The notes: generated by a model from the letters alone, not told the origin. DNA of 64,000 nucleotides from Asaia bogorensis (GCA_945892765.1 CAMDDQ010000002.1:3427-67426), one strand, 5' to 3'. Numbered from the stretch's first letter, positions 3,284 to 46,890 are shown. Translations and numbers: made by a program.

Positions 3284-3310
3284 CCCCGTGGATAACCTCC
3301 CCGTCACGCC

Positions 3311-3350
3311 AAAAAAGGAGCCCTCCGTATCAAATGATACGGAGGGCTCC
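3311..3350 (-). terminator. Rho-independent terminator on the minus strand: a 15-bp perfect stem with an AAAT loop, followed by T6.
   Basis: The plus strand reads aaaaaa GGAGCCCTCCGTATC aaat GATACGGAGGGCTCC. On the minus strand this is a hairpin followed by TTTTTT, immediately downstream of the stop of the 3379-4248 gene. Confidence 0.7.
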
Positions 3351-3378
3351 CTTGTCGGCAATCCAACCTATGACGGGG

Positions 3379-13446: not shown

Positions 13447-13448
13447 GG

Positions 13449-31663: not shown

Positions 31664-32499
31664 TTATGCGCCGGGGCATATTGAATAATACAAACGACGC
31701 GAACGCCACCGCGGCATCGAGAGCCGAAATGCAGGCAGTTCGAGGTGTCGACGAATGCCCCTCGGCCGGCCGGACCGACCAGCGCAACGGCGTCTTCGGG
31801 GCGGCAATGTTGAAACACTTCTTCGTCGCTCAGGCGAGTATCGCCCGAATATGAGCGGCGCTCGTAGGATGTCGCGCCGCGAACGCGGGACGTAACATCC
31901 GCCGGCAGAAAGGTCAGGGGGCCGCTTTCGGGTCCGACGTCCAGCACATTGAGGAATGCCTGCAGGAATCCCACGCTCGGTTTATCGAGGTGGTAAAGCT
32001 CGCTCTGGATTGAGGCGGCGCGGCCTGGGGACACGCAGAGCATGATGTTTTGCAGGCGCGGCATCGTGCCGAAATAGCCGGCGGCGATCTCTACCATCGC
32101 GGGCGACAGGGCCGCGTCGAGAAAGGCGGGGCGATCGAGAATGTCGCGCGATGTCAGGATGTCATAGAAAGGCTGCGCCCCATCTTGAGGTACGGAACTC
32201 GCGCGTTCGGCGTAAAGCGCCTGCCCGGCGGAAACCAACGCCGCGACCTCCGGGACGATCGATGAATCGATAGGCGCAAATCCCTTCGCCCGGGGAATGT
32301 GGTTCCCCCGCGGCGACCCCGCCGACACCGATCGGGCGACCCTGCGGCGAGGCCAGCAATCCAACGGCCGGCGCGCAACGTCCAGGGCCTCCGCGGCGAC
32401 CCTGATCGCCGGAAAGGGCAAGCCCGCGCGCAGGCCGTAAATGAACATCATTTCTTGGACCGGTGTGCGGCGCGGTTTGATTTTGGCGGGGACGTCCAT
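31564..32499 (-). CDS. Putative Fe(II)/2-oxoglutarate-dependent oxygenase (PhyH-like).
   Basis: 'LYHLDKP' (HxD) and a later 'NCLHFGS' His, consistent with the PhyH facial triad. The match is weak. Confidence 0.35.
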   Translation of the reverse strand: MDVPAKIKPRRTPVQEMMFIYGLRAGLPFPAIRVAAEALDVARRPLDCWPRRRVARSVSAGSPRGNHIPRAKGFAPIDSSIVPEVAALVSAGQALYAERASSVPQDGAQPFYDILTSRDILDRPAFLDAALSPAMVEIAAGYFGTMPRLQNIMLCVSPGRAASIQSELYHLDKPSVGFLQAFLNVLDVGPESGPLTFLPADVTSRVRGATSYERRSYSGDTRLSDEEVFQHCRPEDAVALVGPAGRGAFVDTSNCLHFGSRCRGGVRVVCIIQYAPAHKCRPSFSGRFDGHRFGGDPIRSLLLDGARPRSE

Positions 32500-32505
32500 G
32501 GTTGC

Positions 32506-33348
32506 CTATCCCTGCGCCGCCGCCGCCCGTGGCTGAGAAATCGCCGCGCTCGGCCGCAAACGGAAACGGGCCATGCGGATGGGCACGGTTGGCTTGTAGC
32601 CCGCGGTCGCCCATTCGCGAACTTCCTCGCAATCCAGCCGCGTCCCTTTGATCGCATCCATAAAGAATCGCGAGTTGTGGTGCCAATTGACGTTGTCGTT
32701 TTGGTATTCGCAATCGGAGTCCGCATAGGTGAAGGTCAGCAGGAATACGCTTCGTTCGTGAATGAAATCGGCCATGTCGCGGATCAATTGTCGAACCGCC
32801 TCGGGCGGCATATGCACAACGACATCTTGGGCGTAGATGACATCAAACTTTTTCCCGGCCAGCGCGGCCAGCGAGCCGCCGCTCAAATGAACGAAATTCG
32901 GGTTCTTGTGCGAAAGGCCACATGTGGCAACCCACCCGCGCGCGCGTTCGAGGCATTCGCTTGAGATGTCGGCGCCGGTGTAACGGCCAGGCCCCAGATG
33001 CAGAATGAAATTGACCCCCGTGGCGCCCCCGCCGCAGCCATAGTCCAAGAACGTCGTCGCCGGCGTAATCCAACCGTGGGTTGCGAAATATTCCGGCGCG
33101 AACCGGCGGCGACGCTCCTCGGGTGTGCCGGTAACGGCCGCGCCCGATTTGCCCGTCCAGGCGCCGCGGGCGCGGCGGTCCATCATCCGCTCGTAGAAAT
33201 CGGTGTAGCTGCCGCCCCGAAGCCTTGTCGTCCACAACAGCCACTTATTCACGGTGCGCCGGAACGGCTTTTTGACTCTATTGAGGAAGGCCAGGACGAT
33301 CGGGAACAGCCCGAGTGCCACCAATATTCTCTTCAGAATCTTGCGCAT
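32506..33348 (-). CDS. Class I SAM-dependent methyltransferase with an N-terminal TM anchor.
   Basis: 'ILVALGLFPIVLAFL' hydrophobic N-terminus. 'FLDYGCGGGATG' SAM motif. Confidence 0.65.
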   Translation of the reverse strand: MRKILKRILVALGLFPIVLAFLNRVKKPFRRTVNKWLLWTTRLRGGSYTDFYERMMDRRARGAWTGKSGAAVTGTPEERRRRFAPEYFATHGWITPATTFLDYGCGGGATGVNFILHLGPGRYTGADISSECLERARGWVATCGLSHKNPNFVHLSGGSLAALAGKKFDVIYAQDVVVHMPPEAVRQLIRDMADFIHERSVFLLTFTYADSDCEYQNDNVNWHHNSRFFMDAIKGTRLDCEEVREWATAGYKPTVPIRMARFRLRPSAAISQPRAAAAQG

Positions 33349-33403: not shown

Positions 33404-34420
33404 TCACTCGATTGCCTCGGGCGTGAGCGCCTCGAACGCCGCGATGCGCCGCCGAAGCCTGCGGCCGGAAAGATGAGGCGCATCAGCTGGGGACAGCGGT
33501 CCCTCCGGACGAATGATCTTGATGTCAGTTTCGGCGATCCTGTGGCCGGCATCGAGGTCGCGTGCAGCGTAAAGCCCGCGGCGCATGCGCCGGCGCATGG
33601 CGTCCTCGCCCGGCGCCGGAATCTTTTGTCCGTTGCCTAACATCCGTTCAATGCGGCGGATCGAGGTTACCAATCCCGCCATACCGACGGGATCAAGCGA
33701 CAGCGGGTGATCGCCGGGGCGCTGATTGCTGTCCAGCGTGAAGTGCTTCTCGATCACCCGTGCCCCCAACGCCACGGCCACGATGGGTGCCTCGGCGCCG
33801 ATCGTGTGGTCGGAGTAGCCCAGCGTGACATCGGGGAACCGGGCGCGCATGGTCTTAAGCGCGAGCAGATTGGCGTCCTCGTCGGGCAACGGATAAAGCG
33901 ACACGCAGTGCAGCAGCACAAGCCGTTCGGCCGGAACCAAAGCTGCGGCCCCGGCGACTTCGTCAAGCGTGGACATCCCCGTGGACAGCAGCACCGGCTT
34001 GCCGGTCGCGGCCCCGGCACGGATCAATTGGTGGAACGTGAGATCGCCTGAAGCGATCTTGATTGCCGGCATGCGTGGCGCCATTGCGTCAAGGATGTCG
34101 AGGGCGAATGGTGTCGTCAGGAAGTCGATTCCGAGGCCCGCGCAACGGTCGATAATTCGATCATAGGTCTCGGGGGGAAGCTCCAAAGATTTGAATCGTT
34201 CGAACTGGGATCTATAGGCGCTTCCGGCCATCGGCATCGGCGCGGCATTTGGGTGAATCAGAGACCCGGCGTCATAGGTCTGAAATTTGACGGCATCAGC
34301 GCCAGCGCCAGCCGCTTCCTCCACGAGTCGCAGCGCGACCGTCGAATCGCCATTGTGGTTGCCGCCGATCTCCGCGACGACATAGACGTGGCGGCCCAGG
34401 TCGGTGCGGCCGATGATCAT
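33404..34420 (-). CDS. NeuB-family nonulosonic acid synthase, paralog 3.
   Basis: 'VYVVAEIGGNHNGDSTVALRLVEEAAGAGADAVKFQ' with a C-terminal SAF domain. Start at the internal ATG (34420). Confidence 0.8.
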   Translation of the reverse strand: MIIGRTDLGRHVYVVAEIGGNHNGDSTVALRLVEEAAGAGADAVKFQTYDAGSLIHPNAAPMPMAGSAYRSQFERFKSLELPPETYDRIIDRCAGLGIDFLTTPFALDILDAMAPRMPAIKIASGDLTFHQLIRAGAATGKPVLLSTGMSTLDEVAGAAALVPAERLVLLHCVSLYPLPDEDANLLALKTMRARFPDVTLGYSDHTIGAEAPIVAVALGARVIEKHFTLDSNQRPGDHPLSLDPVGMAGLVTSIRRIERMLGNGQKIPAPGEDAMRRRMRRGLYAARDLDAGHRIAETDIKIIRPEGPLSPADAPHLSGRRLRRRIAAFEALTPEAIE

Positions 34421-34421
34421 C

Positions 34422-35834
34422 CTAGGTCGCGACCCCGTGAGGGGCGGAACCGGCGCCCTGCCATGAATCGGCGCCACGGGTCATGTGTTGCGCCGTCCAG
34501 TAGTCGAAGGGCGTGGCGATGCGCAGCGCATCATAGGGCGCCAACTCGATATGCCCGACGGCGCGGCCGAACAAATCGCTGCCCGAGATCAGATTTTCAG
34601 CCTTTAATGCGTACAGGCCGCCAGCCTCGCGGTAGATGACGTCGCGATCCTGGCGCACGACTCGTTTCTGGTAGCCGACCGGCGTGAGTCCGAATCGTCC
34701 GACTTTCCAGTGATAGGTGAGGTCTTCCACGACCGCGACGACCGAATCTGTATCGTAGAGCAGTAGGGTATCCAGCGCCTCTACGACATGGTCGCGGCGA
34801 ATGAAAGGCGATGTGGGATGGATGATCAGGACGAGATCCGGCTGATATCCATCGTCGGCCTGAAGGCGGTGCAACAGGTCGGTCAAGACCGCCTCGAACG
34901 CGATGGCCGGACTGTTCAGCGCCTTGCTACGCAGGAAGGGAGCCTCGGCGCCGGCCGCCCGCGCTGCATCCGCGACCTCGGCATCGTCGGTCGAGACAAC
35001 AATGCGCTCGATCATTTCGACGCCGCGGAGCTTATCGATGCAGCGGGCCAGCAGGTTGCCGTTCTCGAGGGATAGCAAGGGCAGCTTCGATCCATTGAAC
35101 CGGTCGGCCCTCGCCGGAAGGACGGCGAGGACCCGCCGCTGGAAGCGTTCGCGATGTTCTGCGACGAAGCGGTGTTTGACCGCCCGCCGCGTTTCCATCC
35201 GCCCTTCCCAGTTTCGAGACATGCTCTTGCCGTGCTCGCGGCGGAAGTAGAGCGGCAACGATACATTCCGAACTTGGAACTTTTCGATGAACTTGATCCA
35301 GAAGTCATAGTCTTCTTGGTAGCGAATGGACTCATTGTAGCCGCCGATCGCGTCGAAACAGGGGCGGCGATACATGGCGCCGGCGGCCGGCGCGGAGCGA
35401 TCGAGCAGCTCCACCTCTTCATTCACACGGTAGTGTCGTACGCGCTCGATGATGTCGCCATGCGAATCAACGGCGACGAGGTCGCAGAAGACAAGTCCAA
35501 TATCGGGGTGACGATCGAGATAGGTCGCCAGCACCAGAGCCAGGTTTTCGTCGTACCAGTCATCAGCGTCGAGTCGCACAATGTATTCGCCCGTCGATGC
35601 GGCGATCCCGCGATTGCAGGCGGCGGCCAGGCCGATCCCGGCGGTGCGGACGATCTTCAATCCGGGTCTTCCCTCATAACGAAGGAGAATTTGAGGCGTT
35701 TCATCGGTCGACCCATCGTCGACGACGACGACTTCGACCGCCGCATAATTCTGGCTGAGCGCGCTGTCCAGTGCGCGCGGCAAGTATTTCGCGTAGTTGT
35801 GCGCAGTGACGATGATGCTGACGGGAGTAGGCAC
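34422..35834 (-). CDS. Bifunctional fusion: an N-terminal GT2 glycosyltransferase and a C-terminal NeuA-like CMP-sugar cytidylyltransferase.
   Basis: N-terminal 'VSIIVTAHNYAKYL...VVVVDDGSTD...RLDADD' GT2. C-terminal 'LAVLPARADRFNGSKLPL' CTP_transf_3 signature. GTG start overlaps the upstream TAG by 1 nt. Confidence 0.7.
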   Translation of the reverse strand: MPTPVSIIVTAHNYAKYLPRALDSALSQNYAAVEVVVVDDGSTDETPQILLRYEGRPGLKIVRTAGIGLAAACNRGIAASTGEYIVRLDADDWYDENLALVLATYLDRHPDIGLVFCDLVAVDSHGDIIERVRHYRVNEEVELLDRSAPAAGAMYRRPCFDAIGGYNESIRYQEDYDFWIKFIEKFQVRNVSLPLYFRREHGKSMSRNWEGRMETRRAVKHRFVAEHRERFQRRVLAVLPARADRFNGSKLPLLSLENGNLLARCIDKLRGVEMIERIVVSTDDAEVADAARAAGAEAPFLRSKALNSPAIAFEAVLTDLLHRLQADDGYQPDLVLIIHPTSPFIRRDHVVEALDTLLLYDTDSVVAVVEDLTYHWKVGRFGLTPVGYQKRVVRQDRDVIYREAGGLYALKAENLISGSDLFGRAVGHIELAPYDALRIATPFDYWTAQHMTRGADSWQGAGSAPHGVAT

Positions 35835-36601
35835 TATTCTCTGTCTCCGCGTAGCCTGACGTTGATTGACGAGTCGATCTCCATCGCCGGTACTTGGCTG
35901 TTCAACGCGACGATTTCCGGATGGGCGTCAAGCCAGGCGATAATTTCCTTGAGCCGCGGGGGATTGCCTCCGAAGGCCTCATAGACCGCGCGGACGACGG
36001 CAAGGTCCTGCGGCGTGTCGATCGTCAACCGCAGTTCCGGCCGCCTTAGCGCGGGGTCGGCGACTGCGAATTTGCAAACATTGAATCGATCCGGCCGGCG
36101 AATCATCAAAGTCATGTACTCGCTGGCCTTGGGGTCTTCGGCGAGATCATGGCAGCGTTCGAGCGCCTTCAACGACATGACTTCGCATCGCGTGCCGCGC
36201 GGCGGATCCTCCGTGTAGGTATAATCGGCGCCGGCCTCTTTATGGGCCGCCAGCAACTGGTCCATGATTTCCGGATCGGTCAGCGGATTGTCACCCGTAA
36301 TCCGGACGATTGTGTGGGTGGCTCGACTCCAAGCCACCTCGATGAAGCGCGACATCACGTCGAGCTCGTCGCCACGGTAGACGCGCGCGCCGATCGTCCC
36401 AGCCAGTTCCTCAAGCGGATCGTCGTCCGGGTTCGTCGATGTACACCAGACGACATCCTCCGAAAGCCTCGCCTGCGAGACACGTTCGTGAAGTCGAAGA
36501 ATCAATGGTTTGCCCACGAGGTCGGCCAGGGCCTTCCTGGGAAGCCTTGAGGATTTTAGCCGTACGGCAACCAGGGCCAGCGTGCCGCTATGCGGGATCA
36601 T
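35834..36601 (-). CDS. CMP-sugar cytidylyltransferase (SpsF/PseF-like), second stand-alone copy.
   Basis: 'LALVAVRLKSSRLPRKAL' signature. Confidence 0.7.
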   Translation of the reverse strand: MIPHSGTLALVAVRLKSSRLPRKALADLVGKPLILRLHERVSQARLSEDVVWCTSTNPDDDPLEELAGTIGARVYRGDELDVMSRFIEVAWSRATHTIVRITGDNPLTDPEIMDQLLAAHKEAGADYTYTEDPPRGTRCEVMSLKALERCHDLAEDPKASEYMTLMIRRPDRFNVCKFAVADPALRRPELRLTIDTPQDLAVVRAVYEAFGGNPPRLKEIIAWLDAHPEIVALNSQVPAMEIDSSINVRLRGDRE

Positions 36602-37590
36602 GGGAGATCCTCCGCCAGGATCGGCTCGTCAGGCAGTTTGGCCGCCGCCAACAGCCGTCCCGCGAGCCGTTCAACGTCCGACTCGCTTAGCCCGGCCCGA
36701 TTGGTGCGCTTAAAGACCGCGTCTTTGGCGGTGAGGTGGTGGTCCCTGGGCAATGAACCCGCGGCGACAGCCTGCCGTTTCATCTCGTAGCGATACTTCG
36801 TCTCCGCGGGCGAGAGTGCGTCGCCGCCGTCGCCGAGGGATGTCCCGACGAGGCGCAGGAATCGCGTGAAGTCGGCGAACTCGGCGGGCTCGAGCGCCGA
36901 GAAATGGTCGCGACCCTTCCTCGACCGATCGTCCGTCACGTGTTTTTCAATGACCTCCGCTCCGGCCGCGAGCGCCATCGCCGGCAGGGTTCGGGCTTGT
37001 TCGCGGGCCGATGCGTCGGTGTGATCGGCAAATCCGACCGGCAACCCGAAACGCTGCTTCAAAGCCGGAAGTCGCGCGAGCTTCATGTCCTCTATCCGCG
37101 TGGGATAGCTCTGAAATCCGTGCATGAGCGTGACGCGCGCCTGGGTGAGGGGACTAATGACACCCAGCGCCGCGGCAATCTCTGCGTCCGTGGCGCCGCC
37201 GACGGCAAGGTGCAGGGGCTTGCCCGTGTGCGCCGCCGCCGCAAGGAAACGAAGGTTCGCGATATCCGAGGTAGGAAGCTTGTAGCCGCTGACGCTGCCG
37301 CTGCCTTCGGCCAGGTCCAAGCTAGGCTCATCGAAGGCCTCAACCCAAATTGCGACCGACGCACCGCGATATTCCGCAAGAATTTCTCGCCATGTTTCGG
37401 CGGCGATTTCGATCTGTCCAAAGGATTCGAATTTCGGATGGAAACGCGAAATCAGCGCGTCGCGGCGGAAGATCTGGAATTTTACCGCGTCAGCTCCGGT
37501 TCCCGCGGCCAGTTCAAACAATCGCCTTGCCAGCGCGGGGTCGCCTTCGTGAGCGGAGGCGATCTCGGCAACGATATAGGGAAGGTTCAC
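36598..37590 (-). CDS. NeuB-family synthase, paralog 4 (divergent).
   Basis: 'YIVAEIASAHEGDPALARRLFELAAGTGADAVKFQ' with a C-terminal SAF domain. 330 aa. Confidence 0.75.
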   Translation of the reverse strand: MNLPYIVAEIASAHEGDPALARRLFELAAGTGADAVKFQIFRRDALISRFHPKFESFGQIEIAAETWREILAEYRGASVAIWVEAFDEPSLDLAEGSGSVSGYKLPTSDIANLRFLAAAAHTGKPLHLAVGGATDAEIAAALGVISPLTQARVTLMHGFQSYPTRIEDMKLARLPALKQRFGLPVGFADHTDASAREQARTLPAMALAAGAEVIEKHVTDDRSRKGRDHFSALEPAEFADFTRFLRLVGTSLGDGGDALSPAETKYRYEMKRQAVAAGSLPRDHHLTAKDAVFKRTNRAGLSESDVERLAGRLLAAAKLPDEPILAEDLP

Positions 37591-37631: not shown

Positions 37632-38771
37632 CTATATCGCGGTCGCGTCGTGGCGCCGCTGTTCTTCGGCCTTATCGGCGTGATGTTCGTGGTGATCGAC
37701 ATCGGCGCGAATGAAGCGGCCCGGCGCGGACTCCGATTCCTTCGCCAGCCGTTCGCGTTCGGCCAACTCGGTTGGGCTCATCTTCCGCCATTCATAGGAC
37801 GTCATGACGAAGCAGCCCTTGCAGGGGTCGAATTCGTCCAGACGACCGCTGCGATTCCAGTCGCGCAGCGTCTCCATGCGTTCGCCCTTCCAGATGTCTT
37901 TGAGCGGCACCTTCGTCGCGTCGCCGATGGTATAGGTGCGCTCCCAATCCGAACAGCAAGGGAAGACCTTGCCGTCGCGGGCGACGATCATGCGCTGCCA
38001 GGGCTGGTTGCACCGCTTGCGTCCGACGGCGATCTGGTCGCCGCTGTAAAAGGCGTTGCCTTGGCCGCGGTCGCTGACATCCTTGACCGCGATGTCGTCG
38101 GCGATCTCCTTCCACATTTCAAGAAAACGATCGACCTCGGCCTGATTCTCCTTCATGCGCACCATTTGAATGCGGATGAACGGCTTGACGCGGCCCTTGG
38201 CCTCTCGAACTTCGTGGAATTTGCGGATGTTGGCAGTCAGGCGGTCGTAATCCGAGCCGACCCGAACTTTCTCGTAGGTCTCCTTGGTCGCCCCATCCAT
38301 GGAAAAAATGATGCGGTCGAGACCGGCATCGATCAGCTTCTCGATGCGCTTTTGCGTGTAGGGGATGCCGTTGGTGTTGATCTGGACCTCGAGGATTCCC
38401 TTCTTCTTGGCGTAAGCCACGAGGTCCTCGAGCCCGGTGTGCAAGGCCGGCTCGCCGCGCCAATTGAACTTGATCGATTTCGTGCCGCCGGCGGCCGCCT
38501 GATCGATGGTGGATTTGGCGAAAGACATGTCCATGCGACCGGTGATCGGAACCCCGGTCGTGCCATGAACGCACATGATGCAGCGCAGATTGCAGGCCTC
38601 CGTCACCTCGATGTCGAGATGCAGGGGGAACGGCGTCACATGATCGTATTTCGCGACGAATCCCCATTTGGCCCGATAGATGAAGAAATTGAGATCGAAG
38701 CCGCGCTTGGCCCATTCGAGCGCCGCGTTGATCTTGCGGGCGAAGCCGTTGATTTCTTCATACTTGGCCAT
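37632..38771 (-). CDS. Radical SAM enzyme with a C-terminal SPASM/twitch-like Cys cluster.
   Basis: 'EVTEACNLRCIMCVHG' CxxxCxxC. C-terminal 'CNQPW...FPCCSDW...CKGCF'. Start at the internal ATG (38771). Confidence 0.75.
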   Translation of the reverse strand: MAKYEEINGFARKINAALEWAKRGFDLNFFIYRAKWGFVAKYDHVTPFPLHLDIEVTEACNLRCIMCVHGTTGVPITGRMDMSFAKSTIDQAAAGGTKSIKFNWRGEPALHTGLEDLVAYAKKKGILEVQINTNGIPYTQKRIEKLIDAGLDRIIFSMDGATKETYEKVRVGSDYDRLTANIRKFHEVREAKGRVKPFIRIQMVRMKENQAEVDRFLEMWKEIADDIAVKDVSDRGQGNAFYSGDQIAVGRKRCNQPWQRMIVARDGKVFPCCSDWERTYTIGDATKVPLKDIWKGERMETLRDWNRSGRLDEFDPCKGCFVMTSYEWRKMSPTELAERERLAKESESAPGRFIRADVDHHEHHADKAEEQRRHDATAI

Positions 38772-39774
38772 GATGCGTCCCACTGTAGCCGACTTCGCCC
38801 GCTTGCCTGAAATAGTCGAAGGTGCGGCGCACGCCTTCTTCGAGTGCAATTCGCGGCATGAAATCAAGCAATCGAGCCGCTTTGGATATGTCGGCGAAGC
38901 TGCGGCGGACCTCGCCGGCACGCTCCGGATGGTGCTTTAAACCGATTGTCCGACCGGTGCCGTGGCGAACAACTTCGGTGATCAAAGCGGCGAGCTCGTT
39001 GACCGTGCTTTCGGTTTGGGTGGCGATTTGGATGACTTCGCCGCCGATTCCGGGGCGAGTCGCCGCGCGAAAAATTGCCTCGATCAGATCGTCGACAAAG
39101 ACGAAATCGCGGCTTTGGTCGCCGTCGCCGTAAACCTCGAGAGGTTTGCCGGCCAAGGCACGCTTCAGAAAGGCGGCGACGACGCTGTCCTTGTGCGCCG
39201 ATCCGGGTCCGTAGACATTGCCGAAGCGCAGAGCCACGGTTTCAATGGCGAATGTGTGGAAATAGGCGCTGCAATAACCCTCGCCCGATAGTTTGCTCGC
39301 GCCATAGGGGGATTTCGGCCGGGGCGGCAGATTCTCGTGCAGCGGTGGGGCATGATCGCCCAGCGGTGCGGCCGACGATGCGAAGACAAATCGCCCGACG
39401 CGGTTTTTGCGCGCTGCCTCCAGATAGTTGAGCGTGCCGACCACGTTCACGGCGCAGTCGAAGGCCGGATCGGCGATGGACGACATCACACCGGCGTTGG
39501 CAGCAAGATGGACAATGACATCTGCGCCATCGGCCGCGCGCAAGGCCGCCGCCGCGTCGCGTATGTCGGCGATCATGACTTGGCAACCGGCCCATTCAGG
39601 CCCGGCACCATTGCCGCCCGAGTCGACCGCGTTGGTGCCATCGGGCAATGCCGAGCGCTTACCGGTCGATAGATTGTCGACGACCCGCATGGAAGCGCCC
39701 TCGCCATGCAGCCGCGCGACCAGGGCCGACCCAATGAAACCGCAGCCGCCAGTAATCAGCCAATTCATGCCCAT
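38758..39774 (-). CDS. NAD-dependent epimerase/dehydratase (UDP-hexose 4-epimerase-like extended SDR).
   Basis: 'WLITGGCGFIGSAL' and 'YGASKLSGE'. Confidence 0.8.
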   Translation of the reverse strand: MGMNWLITGGCGFIGSALVARLHGEGASMRVVDNLSTGKRSALPDGTNAVDSGGNGAGPEWAGCQVMIADIRDAAAALRAADGADVIVHLAANAGVMSSIADPAFDCAVNVVGTLNYLEAARKNRVGRFVFASSAAPLGDHAPPLHENLPPRPKSPYGASKLSGEGYCSAYFHTFAIETVALRFGNVYGPGSAHKDSVVAAFLKRALAGKPLEVYGDGDQSRDFVFVDDLIEAIFRAATRPGIGGEVIQIATQTESTVNELAALITEVVRHGTGRTIGLKHHPERAGEVRRSFADISKAARLLDFMPRIALEEGVRRTFDYFRQAGEVGYSGTHHGQV

Positions 39775-40913
39775 TTCACTCGCGGTAGGATGTAGTCCTT
39801 GCGTATGGCGTTGCCGTGACGGCGCACGAAATCGATCATGCCCACAATCAGTTCATCCGAGAGCGGATGGGGCTTCAATCCCAAATCCAGCAACCCGGTG
39901 TTCTTGGGATTGTAGTAGTGCTCTTCGGCCTCGCGCCTAGGGTTGTCGACCGGCCTTATCGCTACCTTGATCCCCGCGGCTTTGCCTGCTCGCTGAACGC
40001 GGTTCGCCAGTTCGTTCACCGAGAAGGTTTCGGTGAATTGGTTCAGTACACGGAATTCGCCGACCTTCGCCGGCTGGCGCAGAGCAAGTGCGACGCATTG
40101 GAGCGTGTCGCGAATGTCGAGATAGCCACGGGTCTGACCACCCTTGCCATACACAGTCAGCGGCTCGCCCGCTACCGCCTGCACGACAAATCGGTTCAAG
40201 ACGGTGCCGAAGATGTCGTCGTAGTTGAACAGCGGCGCGAGACGTTCGTCGGCGGCCAGTTCCTCCGTCTCGATCCCGTAGACCGGCCCTTGGTTCAAAT
40301 CGGTTACGGCAATATTCCAAACGCGCACGGCCAGATAGAGCAAGTCGCTGTCCTGGACCTTGGTCAGGTGATAGATCGATCCCGGCGTTTTCGGATAGAG
40401 GAAGCGATGTTCGCGTCCGTTGTGGGTGACGTCCAGATACCCTTCCTCAATATCTATATTCGGCGTCCCGTATTCGCCCATCGTGCCAAGCTTGACGATG
40501 TGGCAGCCGGGTGCTTTTTCGCGAACCGCCCATACAACGTTGAGCGTCGCCAGAAGATTGTTTTGAACGGTCGCGGCGGCGTGAGGCTGGCTCATCATCG
40601 AAAAAGGCGCCGAGGGTTGCTCGGCATAGTGAACGACGGAATCGGGACCGAATTCCCCGAACAGGCGCCGTAGGAATGCGTAGTCGGTGACGTCGCCGAC
40701 ATGCACGGCGATGCCGCGCCCACCGGCCGCGCGCCAGATCGCGGCGCGCTCGGGCATTTCCGGAACCCCAACCAATGGCTGGCAATCGAGATCGCGGCAA
40801 TTGCGCCGGCGCAAGTAGTTGTCCGCCACTGCCACGTCATGGCCCTGCGCGGCGAGGTTCATGGCCGTCGCCCAGCCGAGATAGCCGTCGCCGCCGAGCA
40901 CGAGCACTCTCAT
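39765..40913 (-). CDS. UDP-sulfoquinovose synthase homolog (SQD1/SqdB/Agl3 family).
   Basis: Near-identity to the SQD1 signature: 'VLVLGGDGYLGWATA', 'HYAEQPSAPFSM', 'VKLGTMGEYGTPNIDIEEGY', 'YHLTKVQDS', 'TDLNQGPVYGI'. Confidence 0.8.
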   Translation of the reverse strand: MRVLVLGGDGYLGWATAMNLAAQGHDVAVADNYLRRRNCRDLDCQPLVGVPEMPERAAIWRAAGGRGIAVHVGDVTDYAFLRRLFGEFGPDSVVHYAEQPSAPFSMMSQPHAAATVQNNLLATLNVVWAVREKAPGCHIVKLGTMGEYGTPNIDIEEGYLDVTHNGREHRFLYPKTPGSIYHLTKVQDSDLLYLAVRVWNIAVTDLNQGPVYGIETEELAADERLAPLFNYDDIFGTVLNRFVVQAVAGEPLTVYGKGGQTRGYLDIRDTLQCVALALRQPAKVGEFRVLNQFTETFSVNELANRVQRAGKAAGIKVAIRPVDNPRREAEEHYYNPKNTGLLDLGLKPHPLSDELIVGMIDFVRRHGNAIRKDYILPRVKWA

Positions 40914-41953
40914 GCGGCGGTCTCGGGTCTCAGAAGGCCGCTATCCCTTAAATAGGCGCGCAGCGAGTCGCGGTCCATGGGTGGGTGGTTGGCCGATGTA
41001 TAGGGCTGCTCCACCTGTTCGCGGAGAGTTTCGGGATAGCTGAAGTTCACATCGCGATAGAGATCGCGCAGGGCCGGGAGCACGGCAAAATGACGGCCAA
41101 GCTCGACTGACCGCCGGGTCTCCTCGCTGGTCATCAACTCCTCATAGAGCTTTTCTCCGGGGCGTGAGCCGATTTCCTTGATAAGGATCGCCTTCGGGTC
41201 AAGACCGAAAACCGGCGCCAATTCCTCGATCATCACACGCGCGAGGTCGGAGATGACGATCGTCGCCATCTTCGGGATGAAGACCTCGCCCCCGCGGGCC
41301 AGCGCCCCGGCCCCCAACACTAGATCGACGGCCTCGTCCAACGTCATGATGAACCGGGTCATCGCGCGATCGGTCAACGTGACGGCTCCGCCGCGCCGAA
41401 TTTGTTCGCGGAACAGCGGCACGACTGAACCGCGCGAACCCAGGACATTGCCGAAGCGGGTCGACGTGAATAGCGTTCCGTCGGGTGAAACGGCGGCAGC
41501 CGACATCAATCGCTCGCCCATCAGTTTCGATGCGCCCATCACATTGGTGGGGTTCACGGCCTTGTCGGAAGAGGTGTAGACGACCCTTGCCACCTTCGCC
41601 GCGCGGGCCGCGGCCACTACGTTTTGCACGCCCAGAATATTGGTTTGTACGGCTTCGAGCGGGCTGCGTTCGCACAGCGGCACATGTTTCAATGCCGCGG
41701 CGTGGAGGACGATGTCTACTCCCCGGCAGGCGTCGGCTACCTTGTCGCCGTCACGCACGTCGCCAAGGAGGGGAACAACCCGGTCCGCCCTGTGAGTCTC
41801 GGCCAGAAAGAACAGCTCGCTTTCATTGTTGTCGAGGGCGCGCAGTTCTCCCACGCCGAGGCCGAGCAGCCGAGTGACAAGCGCTCGCCCGACCGTGCCA
41901 GCCGCGCCGGTAACAAGCACGACGCGGCCTGAGAAAAGCATGCTAGGAGTCAC
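40910..41953 (-). CDS. PseB/CapD-like UDP-HexNAc 4,6-dehydratase, second copy (polysacc_synt_2).
   Basis: 'VVLVTGAAGTVGRALV' and 'MGASKLMGE'. Paralog of the 13449-14495 gene. Confidence 0.8.
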   Translation of the reverse strand: MTPSMLFSGRVVLVTGAAGTVGRALVTRLLGLGVGELRALDNNESELFFLAETHRADRVVPLLGDVRDGDKVADACRGVDIVLHAAALKHVPLCERSPLEAVQTNILGVQNVVAAARAAKVARVVYTSSDKAVNPTNVMGASKLMGERLMSAAAVSPDGTLFTSTRFGNVLGSRGSVVPLFREQIRRGGAVTLTDRAMTRFIMTLDEAVDLVLGAGALARGGEVFIPKMATIVISDLARVMIEELAPVFGLDPKAILIKEIGSRPGEKLYEELMTSEETRRSVELGRHFAVLPALRDLYRDVNFSYPETLREQVEQPYTSANHPPMDRDSLRAYLRDSGLLRPETAA

Positions 41954-42085: not shown

Positions 42086-43624
42086 TCAGGTGGCTTGTTG
42101 GAGAACGGCATTCACGTCGCTTTCGCCAAGGCTGTCGATTAGGCCCCCAAACGCGTTCTTTACGGCGGCGTCCAAGAGTGGCTCGGTCTGACCCTTGGTC
42201 TTGAGAGCAAAATTGTGCATATCGAAGGAACAGGCGATAGCCGCAGCCAGGAAACGGCTTCCATCCTTCCATGCCTTTTCGGCATCGACACCGTAGAGCG
42301 CGCGCTGAATGAACCCTTTGATTTGCGCCTCATCAATAACCGTCATGACGTGAGGGGCCATCGCATACATATTGTGTCGGCCGAACGTAATGACTGGCCG
42401 ACCGAGTGCCGCGGCTTCAAATCCCGCGGTCCCGGTAATGGTCACCGTAAATGCGGCCCGTCGCGCGCAATCAATGCCGCTTTCGCCCACATGGAGAAAG
42501 ACGACATTCTTCAAATCACCGATCTGATCGTAGAAATCGGTTGGCCGACGTCCGAGGGTGTAGAGATTTTCCTTGATCGCGAGAACGACACCCGCCGGTA
42601 GATCGCGGGCGATGGAGAGAATCGCGGCATGTTGGTTGAAGTATTCCGGAGACATGAGTTGCAAACTGGTTTCCGGCTCCTTGTGCAATGGGAAATATGC
42701 AAAGCGTCGGTCGGCAAGATCGGCAAGCCGGATGGTGCGTGAACCTGTCATGCGACGATAGGCGGCGTGTTCCCGAAGCGGGAAAGAAACGAACTCGCCG
42801 AAATCGAAACTCCGGGCTTTCTGATAGCCGCGTAGTTTCCAGTAGCCGTAGCTCAACGCGGCTACCGCGGCGCGGCGCAAACTTGTCGCGAGCGAGTGGC
42901 CGGTAAACCAGGTTTTCTTGGCGACAGCCATGCTGTAAGGCTGCTCTATTGTCGATTCCGGCCATGATGTCATGGCATGATAGGCGCGCTCGACCGCTGG
43001 GTTGAAGTAGTACTCGGTCGGCGTCCAATACCAGTAGTTTTTGTAGCGGCTCGTATCGAGTCGACGATAGAGAATGCCATGGGCGCGCGCCATCACGGCA
43101 GCGTCCTTGTCGCCTTGAAGCAGGATGGTCAGACCCTTGCCCTCGATTTCGCGGCGCCAGAAATCGAGCAACTCGCTATGCGCGTGCAGCATCTGGATAT
43201 AGCTGACGTCCCGATAGTGCTTCGATCGCGGGTAGTGAAAACTGCCGGGGCTGAAACCGCGTCCGAAATGCCGGTGGATGCAAGCAATCAGGCTGAATGT
43301 CGTGTCGCTCAGCTTCTCGAACGCCTGGGCGCGGGCGATGACCTCGGTTTCGTTCAGATCCGTGGCGCGCATGGCTTCCGGAATAACGTTGTTGTTGGAT
43401 ACGGAATCCCAGCGGCCGTGGGCGTTCATTTCTCGGAAGGCGCGGAGTTCCTCCGGACTGCGAACGTAAAGGTGGATCTTGGAGCCGTACCGCTCCTTGA
43501 GGCGGTCCGCCAGCTTGAGCGCGAGATCGCGCCAAACCGCGCGCACCTCAATCCCAACGCTGGCGAATCGACGTGACGCCGTCGCCTCATCGACATCTGG
43601 CGAGAATCCCGTGGCCGAACTCAT
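42086..43624 (-). CDS. Capsule-polysaccharide-biosynthesis (KpsS/KpsC-like, Capsule_synth) GT-B protein. Putative CMP-ulosonic-acid transferase.
   Basis: 'FAYFPLHKEPETS' and C-terminal 'TVTITGTAGFEAAALGRPVITFG' resemble KpsS/KpsC family motifs. The assignment is from memory of the family profile, not a computed search. Confidence 0.5.
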   Translation of the reverse strand: MSSATGFSPDVDEATASRRFASVGIEVRAVWRDLALKLADRLKERYGSKIHLYVRSPEELRAFREMNAHGRWDSVSNNNVIPEAMRATDLNETEVIARAQAFEKLSDTTFSLIACIHRHFGRGFSPGSFHYPRSKHYRDVSYIQMLHAHSELLDFWRREIEGKGLTILLQGDKDAAVMARAHGILYRRLDTSRYKNYWYWTPTEYYFNPAVERAYHAMTSWPESTIEQPYSMAVAKKTWFTGHSLATSLRRAAVAALSYGYWKLRGYQKARSFDFGEFVSFPLREHAAYRRMTGSRTIRLADLADRRFAYFPLHKEPETSLQLMSPEYFNQHAAILSIARDLPAGVVLAIKENLYTLGRRPTDFYDQIGDLKNVVFLHVGESGIDCARRAAFTVTITGTAGFEAAALGRPVITFGRHNMYAMAPHVMTVIDEAQIKGFIQRALYGVDAEKAWKDGSRFLAAAIACSFDMHNFALKTKGQTEPLLDAAVKNAFGGLIDSLGESDVNAVLQQAT

Positions 43625-44916
43625 TCGGCGCCCAACAGCGACATCAGCTTGTCAAGGCGCGGCGGATGGGCCGCCAACAGGCGCTCGCGCTCGACGAAAA
43701 GGCTCCCACCCTCCCAAGGCGCGTCGCTTAATGCAGATTCCAGCCGTCTTTCGAAATCTGGCGCCGCTGGGTTGACGAATATCGTGCCATATCCCTGACC
43801 GAGCGACGTCTCGCCCTGCCGGTCGTAGTGCTCTTCCCGGTAGTCCGCGCAATCGATGAAACGTCCTTCGGGGCTCGTGAATGCGACATTGGTCGGTGCG
43901 TTCACGATCGCCCGCCTGGACAGGGCGATCAGCACCTCTGGATGGGCGAGGCTGACAACGATGTGGGGATCGTGAAGCCAGCCAAGAGTATCGGAGAGGT
44001 AGGCGGCATTTTCGGCGAGAGGATGCGGTCGCACGAGAATCGTCGATTTCCGGCGGAGTTGCCGAAGGGCCATTAGAATCTGGCGGAAAGTCCTTTCTGC
44101 GGAATCGGGCGTGCGTAGATTGGCCGAGCTTGCCGTCTTCGGCGCAAAGAAGCAGTAGATCTCCCCAATTGGGTGCCCCGTCGCCCGCAACCGCTCCCGC
44201 TCGGCCGCCGCTTCGGCGATCACCAAGCGACGCCACGCTTCCAATTGGTTCGGGAGGCCCATGCACAAATTCGGTAGCGGCTGAACTGTGCCCCATCGAT
44301 TCAAAGCGTTCAGATAAAGGGTCTGCCGGTCATGGTAGTGGATCAGCGCATCGGCATCCCGCCCGAACAGCCGTCGCACCATGCTGGGTCCCAAATCCGA
44401 CACCATCAGGCGTGGCTGTACATGAGGATGAATGCCGGCATCGACTCCTCGCCCGCCCGCCAGGATGATGCCGCGGCCACGGCGCAGCCGCGCCAAAAGG
44501 AACCAGACCGGGTATGGGCCCGAGCTGAATTGTCGCCCGGCGAATAGGATCGGCCGCTTCCATCGCAACACCCAAACGCAGATGCGCCCGAATCCCGATA
44601 TTCTTCGCCACCATCGGACCAGGGTATTGGGCGCAGTCTTGGCATCGAGACAATGAAGCGTGCCGCATCGTTCGAGCCCGCGCATCAGCGTCGAATTGCG
44701 CCGGATGAAATCGAAATTCTTGGCGGAGAAGGTGACAAAACGGATTTGCCAGTCCGGCCGGGCTTCCTTCAACGCCAGCGCGGTTGGTAGATAGGTGTCG
44801 AAGTCGATGACTCGGGGCGAAAGCATGAAGACAACAAGACGCCGCCGGGATGCGCGCGCCGGCGCGAACGCAGCAGCGCCGTCCGCCATCGGGGTGTCCG
44901 CGTTCTCCGCCAGCAC
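43621..44916 (-). CDS. Hypothetical TagF-like GT-B protein (putative CDP/CMP-sugar transferase).
   Basis: 'ILVRPHPL' and downstream 'IVNAPTNVAFTSPEGRFI', similar to the HP and C-terminal motifs of glycerophosphotransferase-like enzymes. The match is weak. Confidence 0.4.
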   Translation of the reverse strand: MLAENADTPMADGAAAFAPARASRRRLVVFMLSPRVIDFDTYLPTALALKEARPDWQIRFVTFSAKNFDFIRRNSTLMRGLERCGTLHCLDAKTAPNTLVRWWRRISGFGRICVWVLRWKRPILFAGRQFSSGPYPVWFLLARLRRGRGIILAGGRGVDAGIHPHVQPRLMVSDLGPSMVRRLFGRDADALIHYHDRQTLYLNALNRWGTVQPLPNLCMGLPNQLEAWRRLVIAEAAAERERLRATGHPIGEIYCFFAPKTASSANLRTPDSAERTFRQILMALRQLRRKSTILVRPHPLAENAAYLSDTLGWLHDPHIVVSLAHPEVLIALSRRAIVNAPTNVAFTSPEGRFIDCADYREEHYDRQGETSLGQGYGTIFVNPAAPDFERRLESALSDAPWEGGSLFVERERLLAAHPPRLDKLMSLLGAE

Positions 44917-45675
44917 CTAACGCCGCTTCGCCGGAGAGGTCGCGCGCTGGTCGCAACGCATCATGTCGTCGCGTTCGGCGAACCACTCGGCCGAATATTC
45001 GCAATCCCGGTATTCGTCGAAATAGGGTCCGCCGATTGTGTAGTGGACCAACGCCGCATCGGGTCGGGGCGCTGACACGCCGACCAAGTGGTTCCATTTC
45101 GACGGCAGCTCGCCGATCAGTGAGTCGTCCTCGAGCCATTTAAACTGGTGGAGTTTAAGTCCGTTTGCCGCATTGACATAGGCCGGCGTCAACGCCCGAC
45201 ACCGGTCGCAATTGAACAGCATGACACTCGACCAGTTCTTCTTCCCGTATTTGGACTGCGGCTCATCGAGAAATTTCTTGGTCTCGGACGGGACATGATT
45301 GTGTTTGACCGCCATGACGGCGAAACGTTCGTCACGGAGGTGCCACAACGCGCCGATGTCCTCGCGCATGATCATGTCGCAATCCATGAAGATCGCCCAA
45401 CCGCGATAGTCCACAAGATGCGGCGTAAGGAATCTGGAAAACGAAAAATCCGACGATTGCAACGGCTCGCGCGGCCGCGTGAGTGAGCCGGCGAGTTGGG
45501 TCAACATTAGAGGCACCACACAAACCGGCTGGGTCGCCCGTTTGTGTATGCTGTGGACCAGCACGCTGAAGGCTGCCGCCTCGCGCGGGTCATAACCGAT
45601 GAAAACTCTGATCATTTTGGGAAGGAAACCTTGTGATCTCGGCAAAGCTACCGCAGTCCGGGTGAAAGCCTTCAC
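44917..45675 (-). CDS. Putative nucleotide-sugar glycosyltransferase with a DxD motif (Gly_transf_sug / OCH1 / Gb3-synthase-like).
   Basis: 'IRVFIGYDPREAAAFSVLVHSI' and 'AIFMDCDMIM' (DxD). Confidence 0.5.
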   Translation of the reverse strand: MKAFTRTAVALPRSQGFLPKMIRVFIGYDPREAAAFSVLVHSIHKRATQPVCVVPLMLTQLAGSLTRPREPLQSSDFSFSRFLTPHLVDYRGWAIFMDCDMIMREDIGALWHLRDERFAVMAVKHNHVPSETKKFLDEPQSKYGKKNWSSVMLFNCDRCRALTPAYVNAANGLKLHQFKWLEDDSLIGELPSKWNHLVGVSAPRPDAALVHYTIGGPYFDEYRDCEYSAEWFAERDDMMRCDQRATSPAKRR

Positions 45676-45755: not shown

Positions 45756-46259
45756 CTAGGCGCAGGCGGCCACCGCGTCGAGCGGAAGCCTCACGCGCAC
45801 CGGGCGGCCAAGGAGTTGCAGAAGGACGACAACACGCTGAGAATCGGACCCGTCGTCAAACAACCCGATCTGATCGCTCAATGCCCCGGTGACCACGCGT
45901 ATCCGATCGCCCTTCGCGAAAATTGTCCCCCGGCCAAGGACCACGAAGCCGCAATCATCCTCGCGCGCCCGGATCGCCTCGATCACCTCCGGCGGCACGG
46001 GAATTGGTCCGTCACCGCCCGATACCAGCCGGTGAACGCCGACGGTGGAGTCGATGGAACGCCACCGCTGCCGCTCCATGTCGATGCCAACGAACAGATA
46101 GCCCGGAAACAGGGGGGCGGCGACAATTTCCGCGCGACCCGCATGCCGGCGCTGTTTCTTGTGACGGGGCAGGTAGACGGCGAATTCCTGGCGGCGCAAA
46201 TGCATTTCGGCCTGGGCTTCGGCGCGCGGCTGCGTATGGGCGACGTACCAGCGCTGCAT
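45756..46259 (-). CDS. NusG-family transcription antiterminator paralog (RfaH/UpxY-like).
   Basis: 'RWYVAHTQPRAEAQAEMHL' NGN domain. C-terminal KOW-like 'FAKGDRIRVVTGALSDQIGLF'. It lies directly upstream of, and on the same strand as, the glycan operon. Confidence 0.7.
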   Translation of the reverse strand: MQRWYVAHTQPRAEAQAEMHLRRQEFAVYLPRHKKQRRHAGRAEIVAAPLFPGYLFVGIDMERQRWRSIDSTVGVHRLVSGGDGPIPVPPEVIEAIRAREDDCGFVVLGRGTIFAKGDRIRVVTGALSDQIGLFDDGSDSQRVVVLLQLLGRPVRVRLPLDAVAACA

Positions 46260-46260
46260 G

Positions 46261-46890
46261 TCAGCGGTTCCGTCCGTGCGTGAGCCGTAGCAGATTGGGA
46301 GTCAGGATGCGTTCTGGATCGAAATTTGCTGCGGCTTCGTCAAAGGCGGCCTGCGGTGATCGCGTCTCGGTGAGGATGACGGCATCGACCGTGCCAAGCT
46401 GGCCCGGCAGCCTCGATACCTTCAGCCCGGCGAAAGTGTCGGCCTTACTCTTCGAATCCTGGATGCCGACCAGGACCACGCCATGTTCACGCGCGCATAG
46501 GGTGGCGATTTCCGCCAACTCGCTCGAACCCCACAGGGCGATGCGGCGCCAGTTTCGTTGCTCGCACAGTCCGAACAATTCCGAGAGCTGGCTGCGGGCC
46601 TTGCGAAAAAAATTGAACGACGACGACAGGTATTCCGCGGTCAGCCGGCTTTTTTCGGCGAATCCCTTGGGCGTGAGATAATACGCATAACGCTTCCGGG
46701 GAATTTGCCGGACCTTAATCAATCCCTTGCTCACACACCGGCGCAGATAGGCGTTCGTCAGTCCCAGCGCGATGCCAAGATCGCGGGATGCCGATCGCTG
46801 CGTGAGATCGCTGTTTTTTTCGACGGCGTTGAGCAAACCGAGCGTGATTTCGGTATCGCCCGCGCCCGTCGATGCCTGTGACTTCGCCAA
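46261..46890 (-). CDS. Winged helix-turn-helix transcriptional regulator with a C-terminal Rossmann-like domain.
   Basis: 'TQRSASRDLGIALGLTNAYLRRCVSKGLIKV' wHTH. TTG start at 46890 preceded by an AAGGA Shine-Dalgarno sequence. It is the first gene of the locus. Confidence 0.5.
   Translation of the reverse strand: MAKSQASTGAGDTEITLGLLNAVEKNSDLTQRSASRDLGIALGLTNAYLRRCVSKGLIKVRQIPRKRYAYYLTPKGFAEKSRLTAEYLSSSFNFFRKARSQLSELFGLCEQRNWRRIALWGSSELAEIATLCAREHGVVLVGIQDSKSKADTFAGLKVSRLPGQLGTVDAVILTETRSPQAAFDEAAANFDPERILTPNLLRLTHGRNR

Follow-up and report, generated by a model that had tools for sequence, protein, structure and literature searches.

The stretch of Asaia bogorensis DNA considered here, 64,000 nucleotides long (GCA_945892765.1 CAMDDQ010000002.1:3427-67426) and hereafter called the window, raises the question of what a homolog of a sulfolipid enzyme is doing in the middle of a glycan locus. 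The gene concerned lies at 39765-40913 on the minus strand, and its product resembles SQD1 of Arabidopsis, a UDP-sulfoquinovose synthase. C-sulfonated sugars are known from phototrophs and some alphaproteobacteria, where they form the headgroup of the sulfolipid, from a few archaeal N-glycans, as sulfoquinovose or sulfofucose, and from algal lipids. A 2026 review treats phototrophs as the source of environmental sulfoquinovose and SqdB as purely a sulfolipid enzyme of phototrophs (PMC13436972). An earlier note on this DNA had taken the gene for a bona fide sqdB and had proposed that a 6-sulfo-6-deoxyhexose is built into a polysaccharide. On balance, we think it probable that the enzyme, paired with a CapD-like dehydratase homolog encoded next to it, forms the C-S bond of a UDP-6-deoxy-6-sulfo-hexose for a glycan, and this product is probably N-acetylated. 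The context of the loci that carry its closest relatives suggests that bacterial glycans contain a sulfonated sugar that has so far gone undescribed.

The open reading frame starts with ATG and encodes 382 residues, among them GTMGEYGTPNIDIEEGY. BLASTP aligns the product over its full length and without a gap to Arabidopsis SQD1, a biochemically characterized member of the family (201/380 identical residues, 53%, E = 5e-150), and both the SQD1 motif and the collinear similarity throughout that the earlier note had reported are indeed there. With phmmer, residues 2-381 match the SQD1 structures 1qrr and 1i24 in the PDB with 455 bits, while models of GalE and RmlB reach at most 42 bits; the match to SQD1 is far higher and far beyond chance, which speaks against an ordinary UDP-glucose 4-epimerase. 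Judged by its sequence, the protein is an SQD1-family enzyme and not a GalE-type epimerase. An identical protein is on record from a Rhodospirillaceae metagenome-assembled genome, and the databases name such proteins either 'UDP-sulfoquinovose synthase' (KEGG/JGI) or, generically, 'epimerase/dehydratase' (NCBI). The NCBIfam model NF041015, with a cut-off of 575 bits, gives the window protein 440.9 bits, but reading this score (441 < 575) as non-membership was rejected, since the SQD1 control itself scores 482.9 (483); the cut-off is uninformative here because genuine members, SQD1 and the cyanobacterial SqdB proteins (479-487), also fall below it.

The fingerprint of UDP-sulfoquinovose synthases, [ST]MG...Yx3K with a neighboring His (T145, M146, Y182, H183 and K186 in SQD1; PMC8987622), is present as GTMGEYG and YHLTK. 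In SQD1 numbering, the residues T145, M146, E147, Y148, Y182, H183 and K186 are all kept, together with the equivalent of His95 of Agl3. In Agl3, activity is abolished in the alanine mutants H95A, R101A, M145A, Y182A and K186A and falls to ~12-15% in E147A and Y148A (E147A ~12%, in the assay of UDP-glucose to its 5,6-ene; PMC4388408). Four of these five essential residues are found in the window protein, so the alignment to SQD1, SqdB and Agl3 bears out the earlier note up to this point; the fifth, Arg101, is replaced by Pro (Pro100 of the window protein). The motif around this position reads AEQRSAP in Agl3, as given by a primer sequence, GEQRSAP in SQD1 and AEQPSAP in the window protein, and Arg101 is shared by SQD1, the Agl3 primer sequence, cyanobacterial SqdB and the SqdB proteins of S. 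meliloti and Marinovum. Position 101 aligns with Gly102 of WbpP, which is listed among the residues contacting the sugar nucleotide, and a larger residue at that position did not exclude acetylated substrates (bioRxiv 10.1101/2020.05.26.111013). The idea that Pro101 makes room for an N-acetyl group was dropped, since the enlargement in WbpP is no bar to acetylated substrates and Pro is also found in homologs lacking a CapD-like partner (group B and haloarchaea, see below); for the same two reasons we regard Pro101 as a clade marker only and not as proof.

To place the protein, SQD1-like proteins from 88 loci were compared, comprising 80 from species-representative genomes (the best-scoring of at least 589 genome matches), seven from metagenome contigs and the one from the window. 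Neighboring genes were clustered from open reading frames picked by a score that takes account of GC content at third codon positions (GC3). Sorting by the motif around position 101 gave three groups. Group A, with HYAEQ-P-SAP, consists of 50 loci including the window, and its hosts are Alpha- and Gammaproteobacteria, Desulfobacterota, Myxococcota, Gemmatimonas (Gemmatimonadota), Saprospiraceae (Bacteroidota), Anaerolineae (Chloroflexota) and Rubrobacter (Rubrobacteria). Group B, with HYGE[MQI]-P-SAP, has 25 loci from Actinomycetota and Chloroflexia, and group C, the one that clusters with SQD1, has the motif HF[GA]EQ-R-SAP and 13 loci from cyanobacteria, phototrophic Chloroflexi, Acidobacteria and Thermoflexus. 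A distance-based neighbor-joining tree with 100 bootstraps recovered group A as monophyletic in 100/100 replicates and group C, together with SQD1 and cyanobacterial SqdB, in 86/100, and the window protein fell outside any clade with characterized enzymes. Pro101 occurs in all 50 group-A sequences, which further differ from group C by F97Y, V121L, L172F, P173L, H191D and V211P, changes that are all essentially invariant; strict conservation in the same 50/50 sequences also holds for His183 and the TMG fingerprint. On these alignments, group A is a separate, widespread bacterial SQD1-like clade. The 'bona fide' SqdB of the earlier note thus holds in the broad sense, in that the protein belongs to the SQD1/Agl3 family, and fails in the narrow one, by the change of Arg101 to Pro and by its place in a clade of its own.

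Some variation within and around these groups should be recorded. A Desulfobacterota-centered subclade of group A (L004, L005, L007-L011 and L044) has the fingerprint GTMGVYG, i.e. Glu147 is changed to Val, keeps the CapD-like partner and sits in Wza/Wzc/Wzx/Wzy loci. Group-B genes (loci L022, L023, L034, L038, L046, L052, L055-L057, L065, L068 and L078 among others) are paired with a DUF2304-GT2 membrane glycosyltransferase in 17/25 cases and with a class-V aminotransferase/cysteine-desulfurase-like gene in 6/25; group B is another non-sulfolipid use of the SQD1 family, without a characterized member. On a plasmid of Haladaptatus pallidirubidus (L090, 5001-8202), an SQD1-like gene whose motif reads HTAAQPSAP is followed by two NAD(P)-dependent oxidoreductase genes and surrounded by sulfatase-like and alkaline-phosphatase-family genes, and since this haloarchaeal homolog has Pro, the loss of Arg101 is not limited to bacteria. 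A plasmid of Pseudonocardia autotrophica (L092, 5001-6149) encodes an Arg101-type homolog with the fingerprint GTLGKYG (Met146 to Leu, Glu147 to Lys), adjoining a glycosyltransferase family 2 (GT2) gene and a gene of the pyridoxal-phosphate-dependent cysteine synthase family.

Group A is also set apart by its neighbor. In the window, the gene at 40910-41953 on the minus strand encodes an extended short-chain dehydrogenase/reductase (SDR) of the CapD family (PF02719, 318 bits) with the motif SDK...M...K, a homolog of the UDP-N-acetylglucosamine (UDP-GlcNAc) dehydratases of the Pen/CapE/FnlA type. To our knowledge, all characterized members of its family act on UDP-GlcNAc. Its best match in the PDB is 6BWC, which is Pen, the UDP-GlcNAc 5,6-dehydratase of Bacillus thuringiensis (266 bits), with lower scores for FnlA (222), CapE (212), FlaA1/PseB (187) and PglF (176). 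A reading of this gene as simply pseB was rejected, as the true PseB of the window, encoded at 13449-14546 (386 bits to FlaA1 of H. pylori), shares only 40% identity with it. Of the group-A loci, 45/50 have a CapD-like gene (40% identity or more to the one in the window) no further than 2.5 kb from the SQD1-like gene, vs 0/38 loci of groups B and C taken together (Fisher p = 8e-20); it usually sits directly upstream on the same strand, and the motif [ST]DK...M...K is found in 38/39 partners. The CapD-like gene is therefore a near-obligate partner of the group-A gene and not a bystander. Since the closest solved relative of the partner is Pen, the substrate stream probably derives from UDP-GlcNAc and the product is probably a sugar other than sulfoquinovose.

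On the other side of the SQD1-like gene, as the earlier note had it, lies an epimerase-type gene: 38758-39774 on the minus strand encodes a GalE/WbgU/WbpP-like extended SDR, here called SDR3 (PF01370, 196 bits), whose best PDB matches are the UDP-hexose/UDP-N-acetylhexosamine (UDP-HexNAc) 4-epimerases 7ys8 (189 bits), WbgU (159), WbpP (140) and Pal (120). SDR3 is the probable C4-epimerase of the UDP-sulfosugar, and in 28/49 group-A loci it directly follows the SQD1-like gene. The stop codon of the CapD-like gene overlaps the start of the SQD1-like gene in an ATGA, and so does the stop of the SQD1-like gene with the start of SDR3; because of these overlaps at both junctions, the three genes are taken to be translationally coupled.

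It is at this point that an ordinary UDP-sulfoquinovose synthase has to be considered. The enzyme could make UDP-sulfoquinovose from UDP-glucose and sulfite, which would enter the glycan as such or as sulfofucose after 4-epimerization by SDR3, while the CapD-like enzyme would make an unrelated sugar of the repeat unit. The 53% identity to SQD1, the intact catalytic triad and fingerprint, and the occurrence of Pro101 in group B and in haloarchaeal homologs, where no CapD-like partner is present, all fit this explanation, and Haloferax has been reported to have a glycan with sulfoquinovose (PMC4388408). The GalE-like SDR downstream could supply UDP-sulfofucose, to which no biosynthetic route is known, as is the case for sulfosugars other than sulfoquinovose in general (PMC12421959, 2025). 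What such a synthase leaves unexplained is the CapD-like linkage of 45/50 vs 0/38, which extends over at least eight phyla and often involves overlapping start and stop codons, as well as the loss of Arg101 and, in the GTMGVYG subclade, of Glu147, both of which Agl3 needs for UDP-glucose. We consider the ordinary synthase possible, though not likely.

The second question is whether the group-A enzymes still deal with sulfur at all, and here the relatives of the window are informative. Genes of the PAPS_reduct family stand in the same gene strings as the CapD-like/SQD1-like pair in several group-A loci. In the cultured isolate Histidinibacterium aquaticum (L026), cysH begins 46 nt downstream of the SQD1-like gene, and in three further loci (L015, L027 and L033) the gene order is cysH, SDR, CapD-like, SQD1-like, SDR. 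All four CysH proteins score above the cut-off for the phosphoadenylyl-sulfate reductase equivalog (235-261 vs 154 bits), and the product of this reductase is sulfite. An ambiguous PAPS_reduct-family member lies directly downstream in L004, CysC, CysD and CysN are encoded in L030, and the group-B locus L078 has TauE, CysN and CysC, while no sulfite-supply gene was found near any of the 13 loci of the canonical group C. For at least 5/50 loci with such genes, p is ~1e-4 at a rough background of 1% per 20 kb, a figure to be read with the phylogenetic non-independence of the loci in mind. A group A that had abandoned sulfur should show no link to genes of sulfite supply, and the CysH linkage therefore speaks for sulfur chemistry; it fits an ordinary UDP-sulfoquinovose synthase equally well.

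The same observation bears on a sulfur-free route, in which the SQD1-like enzyme would act as a 5,6-dehydratase, 4-oxidase or reductase and, together with the CapD-like enzyme, would follow a Pen/Pal-like path in which NeuB receives a 6-deoxy or exo-glycal UDP-HexNAc, ending in a pseudaminic- or legionaminic-type acid without amino groups. SQD1 and Agl3 do behave in this way when sulfite is missing, Agl3 then giving the 5,6-ene of UDP-glucose, and there is a precedent in Pen, which makes UDP-GlcNAc-5,6-ene, and Pal, two SDRs that together lead into CMP-pseudaminic acid (PMC8987622). The make-up of the window module, rich in genes for NeuB and CMP-transferases and devoid of a sulfur-assimilation gene, would suit it too, and so would the loss of Arg101. 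However, without sulfite it is hard to see why cysH should stand in the operon-like strings of the pair in four relatives and cysDNC in a fifth, and both His183 and the TMG fingerprint specific to sulfoquinovose synthases are strictly kept in 50/50 group-A sequences. Moreover, a Pen-like and a Pal-like GalE-type SDR are already there, so that a third such enzyme would be redundant, and most group-A loci are without NeuB. A sulfur-free role is, in our judgment, improbable.

A home in sulfolipid synthesis is the remaining alternative. The reference operons used for comparison were sqdB-sqdD-sqdC of S. meliloti and Marinovum (L089 and L091) and the cyanobacterial sqdB-sqdX (L076). The SqdD proteins of S. 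meliloti and Marinovum gave no tblastn match at E <= 0.01 in the whole 64-kb window, cyanobacterial SqdX found only generic similarity to the C-domain of GT4 enzymes (29-35%) more than 30 kb away, and Marinovum SqdC matched only 96 aa of SDR3. A sulfolipid operon, i.e. SqdD (GT8) or SqdX/SQD2 (GT4) together with SqdC, is thus not found in the 64 kb, and the earlier note was right that the gene has no SqdD or SqdC partner. The window does encode a marginal GT8-like glycosyltransferase at 44917-45675 on the minus strand (PF01501, 25.1 bits vs a cut-off of 24.3, partial coverage, no PDB match), which is ruled out as a detectable SqdD by the negative tblastn search. At the place after sqdB-sqdD where sqdC should follow, the S. 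meliloti Ak57 sequence (L089, 7000-8100) is split over two frames and unannotated, which could be due to a frameshift, a pseudogene or a sequencing error.

If the enzyme were nevertheless a synthase for the headgroup of sulfoquinovosyldiacylglycerol, its transferase would have to be encoded elsewhere in the genome and its position in a glycan locus would be due to chance. Some cyanobacteria do have sqdB apart from sqdX (PMC13436972), and only 64 kb of the genome are visible. Against this stand the missing SqdD and SqdX in the window, the translational coupling of the gene on both sides to SDRs of the glycan type, the recurrence of the same module in at least six independent contigs, and the fact that the canonical sulfolipid enzymes keep Arg101 and belong to other clades; we regard the headgroup as a very remote prospect. 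An SQD1-family enzyme, a glycan locus and the lack of a sulfolipid operon make a C6-sulfonated sugar in a glycan the best reading, and to this extent the proposal of the earlier note stands; the Pen-like partner suggests that the sugar is probably not sulfoquinovose itself.

How could two SDRs share the work? Agl3 releases UDP-glucose-5,6-ene as a free intermediate, which then reacts with sulfite to UDP-sulfoquinovose (PMC4388408). We infer that in group A, too, sulfite is the nucleophile and that UDP-GlcNAc is the starting sugar, so that the C-S bond would arise as in SQD1 and Agl3, by addition of sulfite to a 4-keto-5,6-ene sugar. In the simplest and most likely order, the CapD-like enzyme would, in the first step, convert UDP-GlcNAc to its 5,6-ene, as Pen does; in the second, the SQD1-like enzyme would re-oxidize C4, add sulfite at C6 and reduce C4 again, giving UDP-6-sulfo-6-deoxy-GlcNAc; in the third, the GalE-like SDR would epimerize this sulfosugar, probably at C4. 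The scheme would be redox-balanced for each enzyme, and the SQD1 reaction would in effect be split between two enzymes. It can also be envisioned that the order is reversed, the SQD1-like enzyme acting first, the CapD-like enzyme serving as a 4-oxidase and 5-epimerase in the manner of CapE and FnlA, and SDR3 as the reductase. The two-enzyme model would explain the pairing, and also the loss of Arg101 and, in the GTMGVYG subclade, of Glu147, because Agl3 needs both residues for the conversion of UDP-glucose to the 5,6-ene; it accounts for the CysH linkage as well.

The fate of the product depends on what lies downstream, and in this respect the 'polysaccharide locus' of the earlier note turned out to be something more specific, a conserved NeuB/CMP-sugar module. 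In the window, all on the minus strand, SDR3 is followed by a radical S-adenosylmethionine (SAM)/SPASM enzyme at 37632-38771 (PF04055 and PF13186; matching the C-terminal half of TIGR04321, 'spiro-SPASM'), a NeuB-family synthase without SAF domain at 36598-37590 (TIGR03569, 188 bits, below cut-off; PF03102), a cytidylyltransferase resembling CMP-ulosonic-acid synthetases at 35834-36601 (PF02348; KdsB-like NCBIfam matches; N-terminal half of TIGR04321), a fusion of GT2 (residues 5-207) with a NeuA-like cytidylyltransferase (PseF/NeuA-like, residues 235-450) at 34422-35834, and a NeuB-family synthase with SAF domain at 33404-34420 (TIGR03569 293 and PseI 238 bits, both below cut-off; PF03102 and PF08666). 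Then come a SAM-dependent methyltransferase at 32506-33348 (Methyltransf_23/31/11), a 311-aa protein without family match at 31564-32499, and an ABC exporter of the MsbA/HepA/PglK type, with fused transmembrane and nucleotide-binding domains, at 29735-31558 (HepA_fam_ABC 358 and MsbA 337 bits, below the cut-offs). The module thus holds two NeuB-family synthases and two CTP_transf_3 domains.

The order CapD-like, SQD1-like, SDR3, radical SAM/SPASM, (a protein without assignment), NeuB, cytidylyltransferase, GT2::NeuA-like fusion, (cytidylyltransferase), NeuB with SAF and ABC exporter recurs in L002, L086, L087 and L088, whose SQD1-like proteins are 66-73% identical, and partly in L003 and L006. 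The radical SAM/SPASM gene is conserved in the window and the same four loci, the fusion in seven group-A loci, and ABC exporters end the module also in L002, L003, L086 and L047. The two halves of the spirochete fusion family TIGR04321 are here separate (35834-36601 and 37632-38771) with the NeuB gene between them, and these half matches suggest that the radical SAM enzyme acts on a CMP-activated sugar. Across the loci, NeuB is found in 9/50 of group A vs 0/38 of groups B and C (p = 0.009). In Ferrovibrio (L047), CapD-like and SQD1-like genes are followed by neuB, a gene for a NeuC-type hydrolyzing 2-epimerase, more genes and then an ABC exporter, and in D. alkenivorans (L012), neuB and neuC lie ~5 kb upstream of the pair; most group-A loci have no NeuB and belong to polysaccharide loci of the Wza/Wzc/Wzx/Wzy type.

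For the subclade of the window, two fates can be put forth. In the first, the sulfosugar may pass unchanged from its UDP form into a glycan that is rich in ulosonic acids. In the second, the GT2 domain (or NeuC in L047 and L012) may set the sulfosugar free, and NeuB would condense it with phosphoenolpyruvate to a 9-sulfo-nonulosonic acid, which would then be activated with CMP. The boldest version of the second would have the module make CMP-activated 9-deoxy-9-sulfo-nonulosonic acid, a C-sulfonated analog of sialic acid, from UDP-GlcNAc via UDP-6-sulfo-6-deoxy-HexNAc, with group-A pairs as an unrecognized source, across several phyla, of C-sulfonated amino sugars in the glycans of heterotrophic and sulfate-reducing bacteria. 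We hold this to be doubtful: NeuC with NeuB could give N-acetylneuraminic acid (Neu5Ac), and the window has no recognizable UDP-sugar hydrolase. For the same reason, the adjacency of NeuC in L047 and L012 was downgraded as proof of a 2-acetamido substrate, NeuC and NeuB alone being enough for ordinary Neu5Ac.

Several points weigh against the proposed formation of a sulfonated, UDP-GlcNAc-derived sugar by the CapD-like/SQD1-like pair. Group A contains no characterized member, and the deep branch order of the groups is not settled by the distance-based tree. Pro101 also occurs in group B and in the haloarchaeal homolog L090, neither of which has a CapD-like neighbor, and in view of these partnerless cases the change of Arg101 to Pro is by itself no proof that the substrate differs or that dehydration has been delegated. 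The catalytic Tyr of Pen is replaced by Met in the partner, just as it is in the 4,6-dehydratases or epimerases PglF, CapE and FnlA; the partner may therefore be something other than a 5,6-dehydratase, and the steps could run in the reverse order. The window has neither cysH nor any other sulfite-supply gene, and no NeuC-like sequence or PseG-type UDP-sugar hydrolase was found in it; the NeuC and NeuB of L047 and L012 could serve ordinary Neu5Ac of the same glycan.

The pair and its module are part of one very large glycan locus that occupies ~1.9-46.9 kb of the window on the minus strand. At its head stands a winged-helix regulator of the HTH_24 family at 46261-46890 (PF13412, 35.7 bits), a family also found upstream in four group-A loci, followed by a NusG paralog at 45756-46259 (PF02357, 85 bits), by inference an operon-specific antiterminator; together the two may provide operon-specific antitermination of the ~17-kb module. 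Between these and the CapD-like gene, besides the GT8-like gene already mentioned, lie genes for a protein of 401-431 aa without Pfam or NCBIfam match (43621-44916, minus strand) and for a 512-aa protein with a sub-threshold match to Capsule_synth of the KpsC/KpsS type (42086-43624, minus strand; PF05159, 17.4 bits vs a cut-off of 20). No DegT-type aminotransferase or acetyltransferase is encoded among the genes from 29.7 to 46.9 kb. Including those of the module, four NeuB paralogs are encoded in the window (11540-12610, ~26954-27960, 33404-34420 and 36598-37590), and the locus further contains at least four CTP_transf_3 domains, two AsnB-like amidotransferases, a HisH/HisF-like pair (23752-25127), GT4 enzymes and a Wzy_C protein at 1916-3361, contents which suggest a glycan with several different ulosonic acids. 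A second, separate module at 10135-14546 on the minus strand combines the true PseB with an RmlD-like reductase, a NeuB with SAF domain, a GT2 and a cytidylyltransferase, and with no aminotransferase among its genes, its product may be a pseudaminic-like acid that lacks amino groups. The gene immediately upstream of the operon, at 46994-48571, encodes a heparinase II/III-like protein (PF07940), and the housekeeping genes beyond it (ribulose-phosphate 3-epimerase, semialdehyde dehydrogenase) mark the edge of the glycan locus.

If the proposal is true, many heterotrophs would make sulfonated cell-surface glycans and would represent a producer side of the organosulfonate cycle that is not accounted for at present. 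Bacterial glycobiology would gain a new acidic sugar, possibly a sulfonated analog of sialic acid. The division of the SQD1 reaction over two enzymes is, in addition, a testable enzymological idea.

Among known systems, the window protein would be closest in its function to SQD1 and Agl3. It shares with SQD1, SqdB and Agl3 of Sulfolobus acidocaldarius (EC 3.13.1.1) the extended-SDR fold family, the length, and the motifs GxxGxxG, TMG(E)YG and YHxxK including His183, and sulfite-producing genes are linked to its relatives. As with Agl3, its context is a glycan and not a lipid. It differs from all three by its separate clade, by Pro for Arg101 and the six further substitutions, by the near-constant neighbor of the CapD family and by the missing SqdX, SqdD and SqdC; they use UDP-glucose, whereas its predicted substrate is probably derived from UDP-GlcNAc. 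With the sqdBDC operons of Rhodobacter and Sinorhizobium and the sqdBX operons of cyanobacteria it has in common an SQD1-family gene at the start, but the reference SqdB proteins (L089, L091 and L076) keep Arg101, are only 40-55% identical to the window protein and, unlike it, have no CapD-like neighbor. In the literature searched, no bacterial polysaccharide-linked sulfoquinovose synthase, sulfoquinovosamine, sulfo-HexNAc or sulfonated nonulosonic acid was found.

The downstream genes resemble the NeuC/NeuB/NeuA, PseBCHGIF and LegBCHGIF pathways in having NeuB-family synthases, cytidylyltransferases of the NeuA/PseF/KdsB type and UDP-HexNAc-modifying SDRs placed first, and the order CapD-like, SQD1-like, NeuB, NeuC in L047 mirrors the Leg/Neu pathway. 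Unlike these, the window module has two NeuB and two or three cytidylyltransferase domains with no NeuC or PseG, and its radical SAM/SPASM enzyme, GT2::NeuA fusion and SQD1-like enzyme are in no described nonulosonic acid pathway. No described pathway combines downstream genes of the Neu/Leg/Pse kind with a pairing like that of Pen and Pal, the Bacillus thuringiensis enzymes leading to UDP-4-keto-6-deoxy-L-AltNAc (AltNAc, N-acetylaltrosamine). In both Bacillus and the window, a CapD-family SDR is followed by a second extended SDR, for which the 5,6-ene released by the first would be the substrate, upstream of genes for NeuB-type synthases and CMP-transferases. The window partner has Met for the Tyr of Pen, and its module is without aminotransferase, acetyltransferase and PseG-type hydrolase. 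The second enzyme of the window is, moreover, SQD1-like, and in place of the 5,6-reduction and 5-epimerization of the Pen/Pal route it would be expected to add sulfite.

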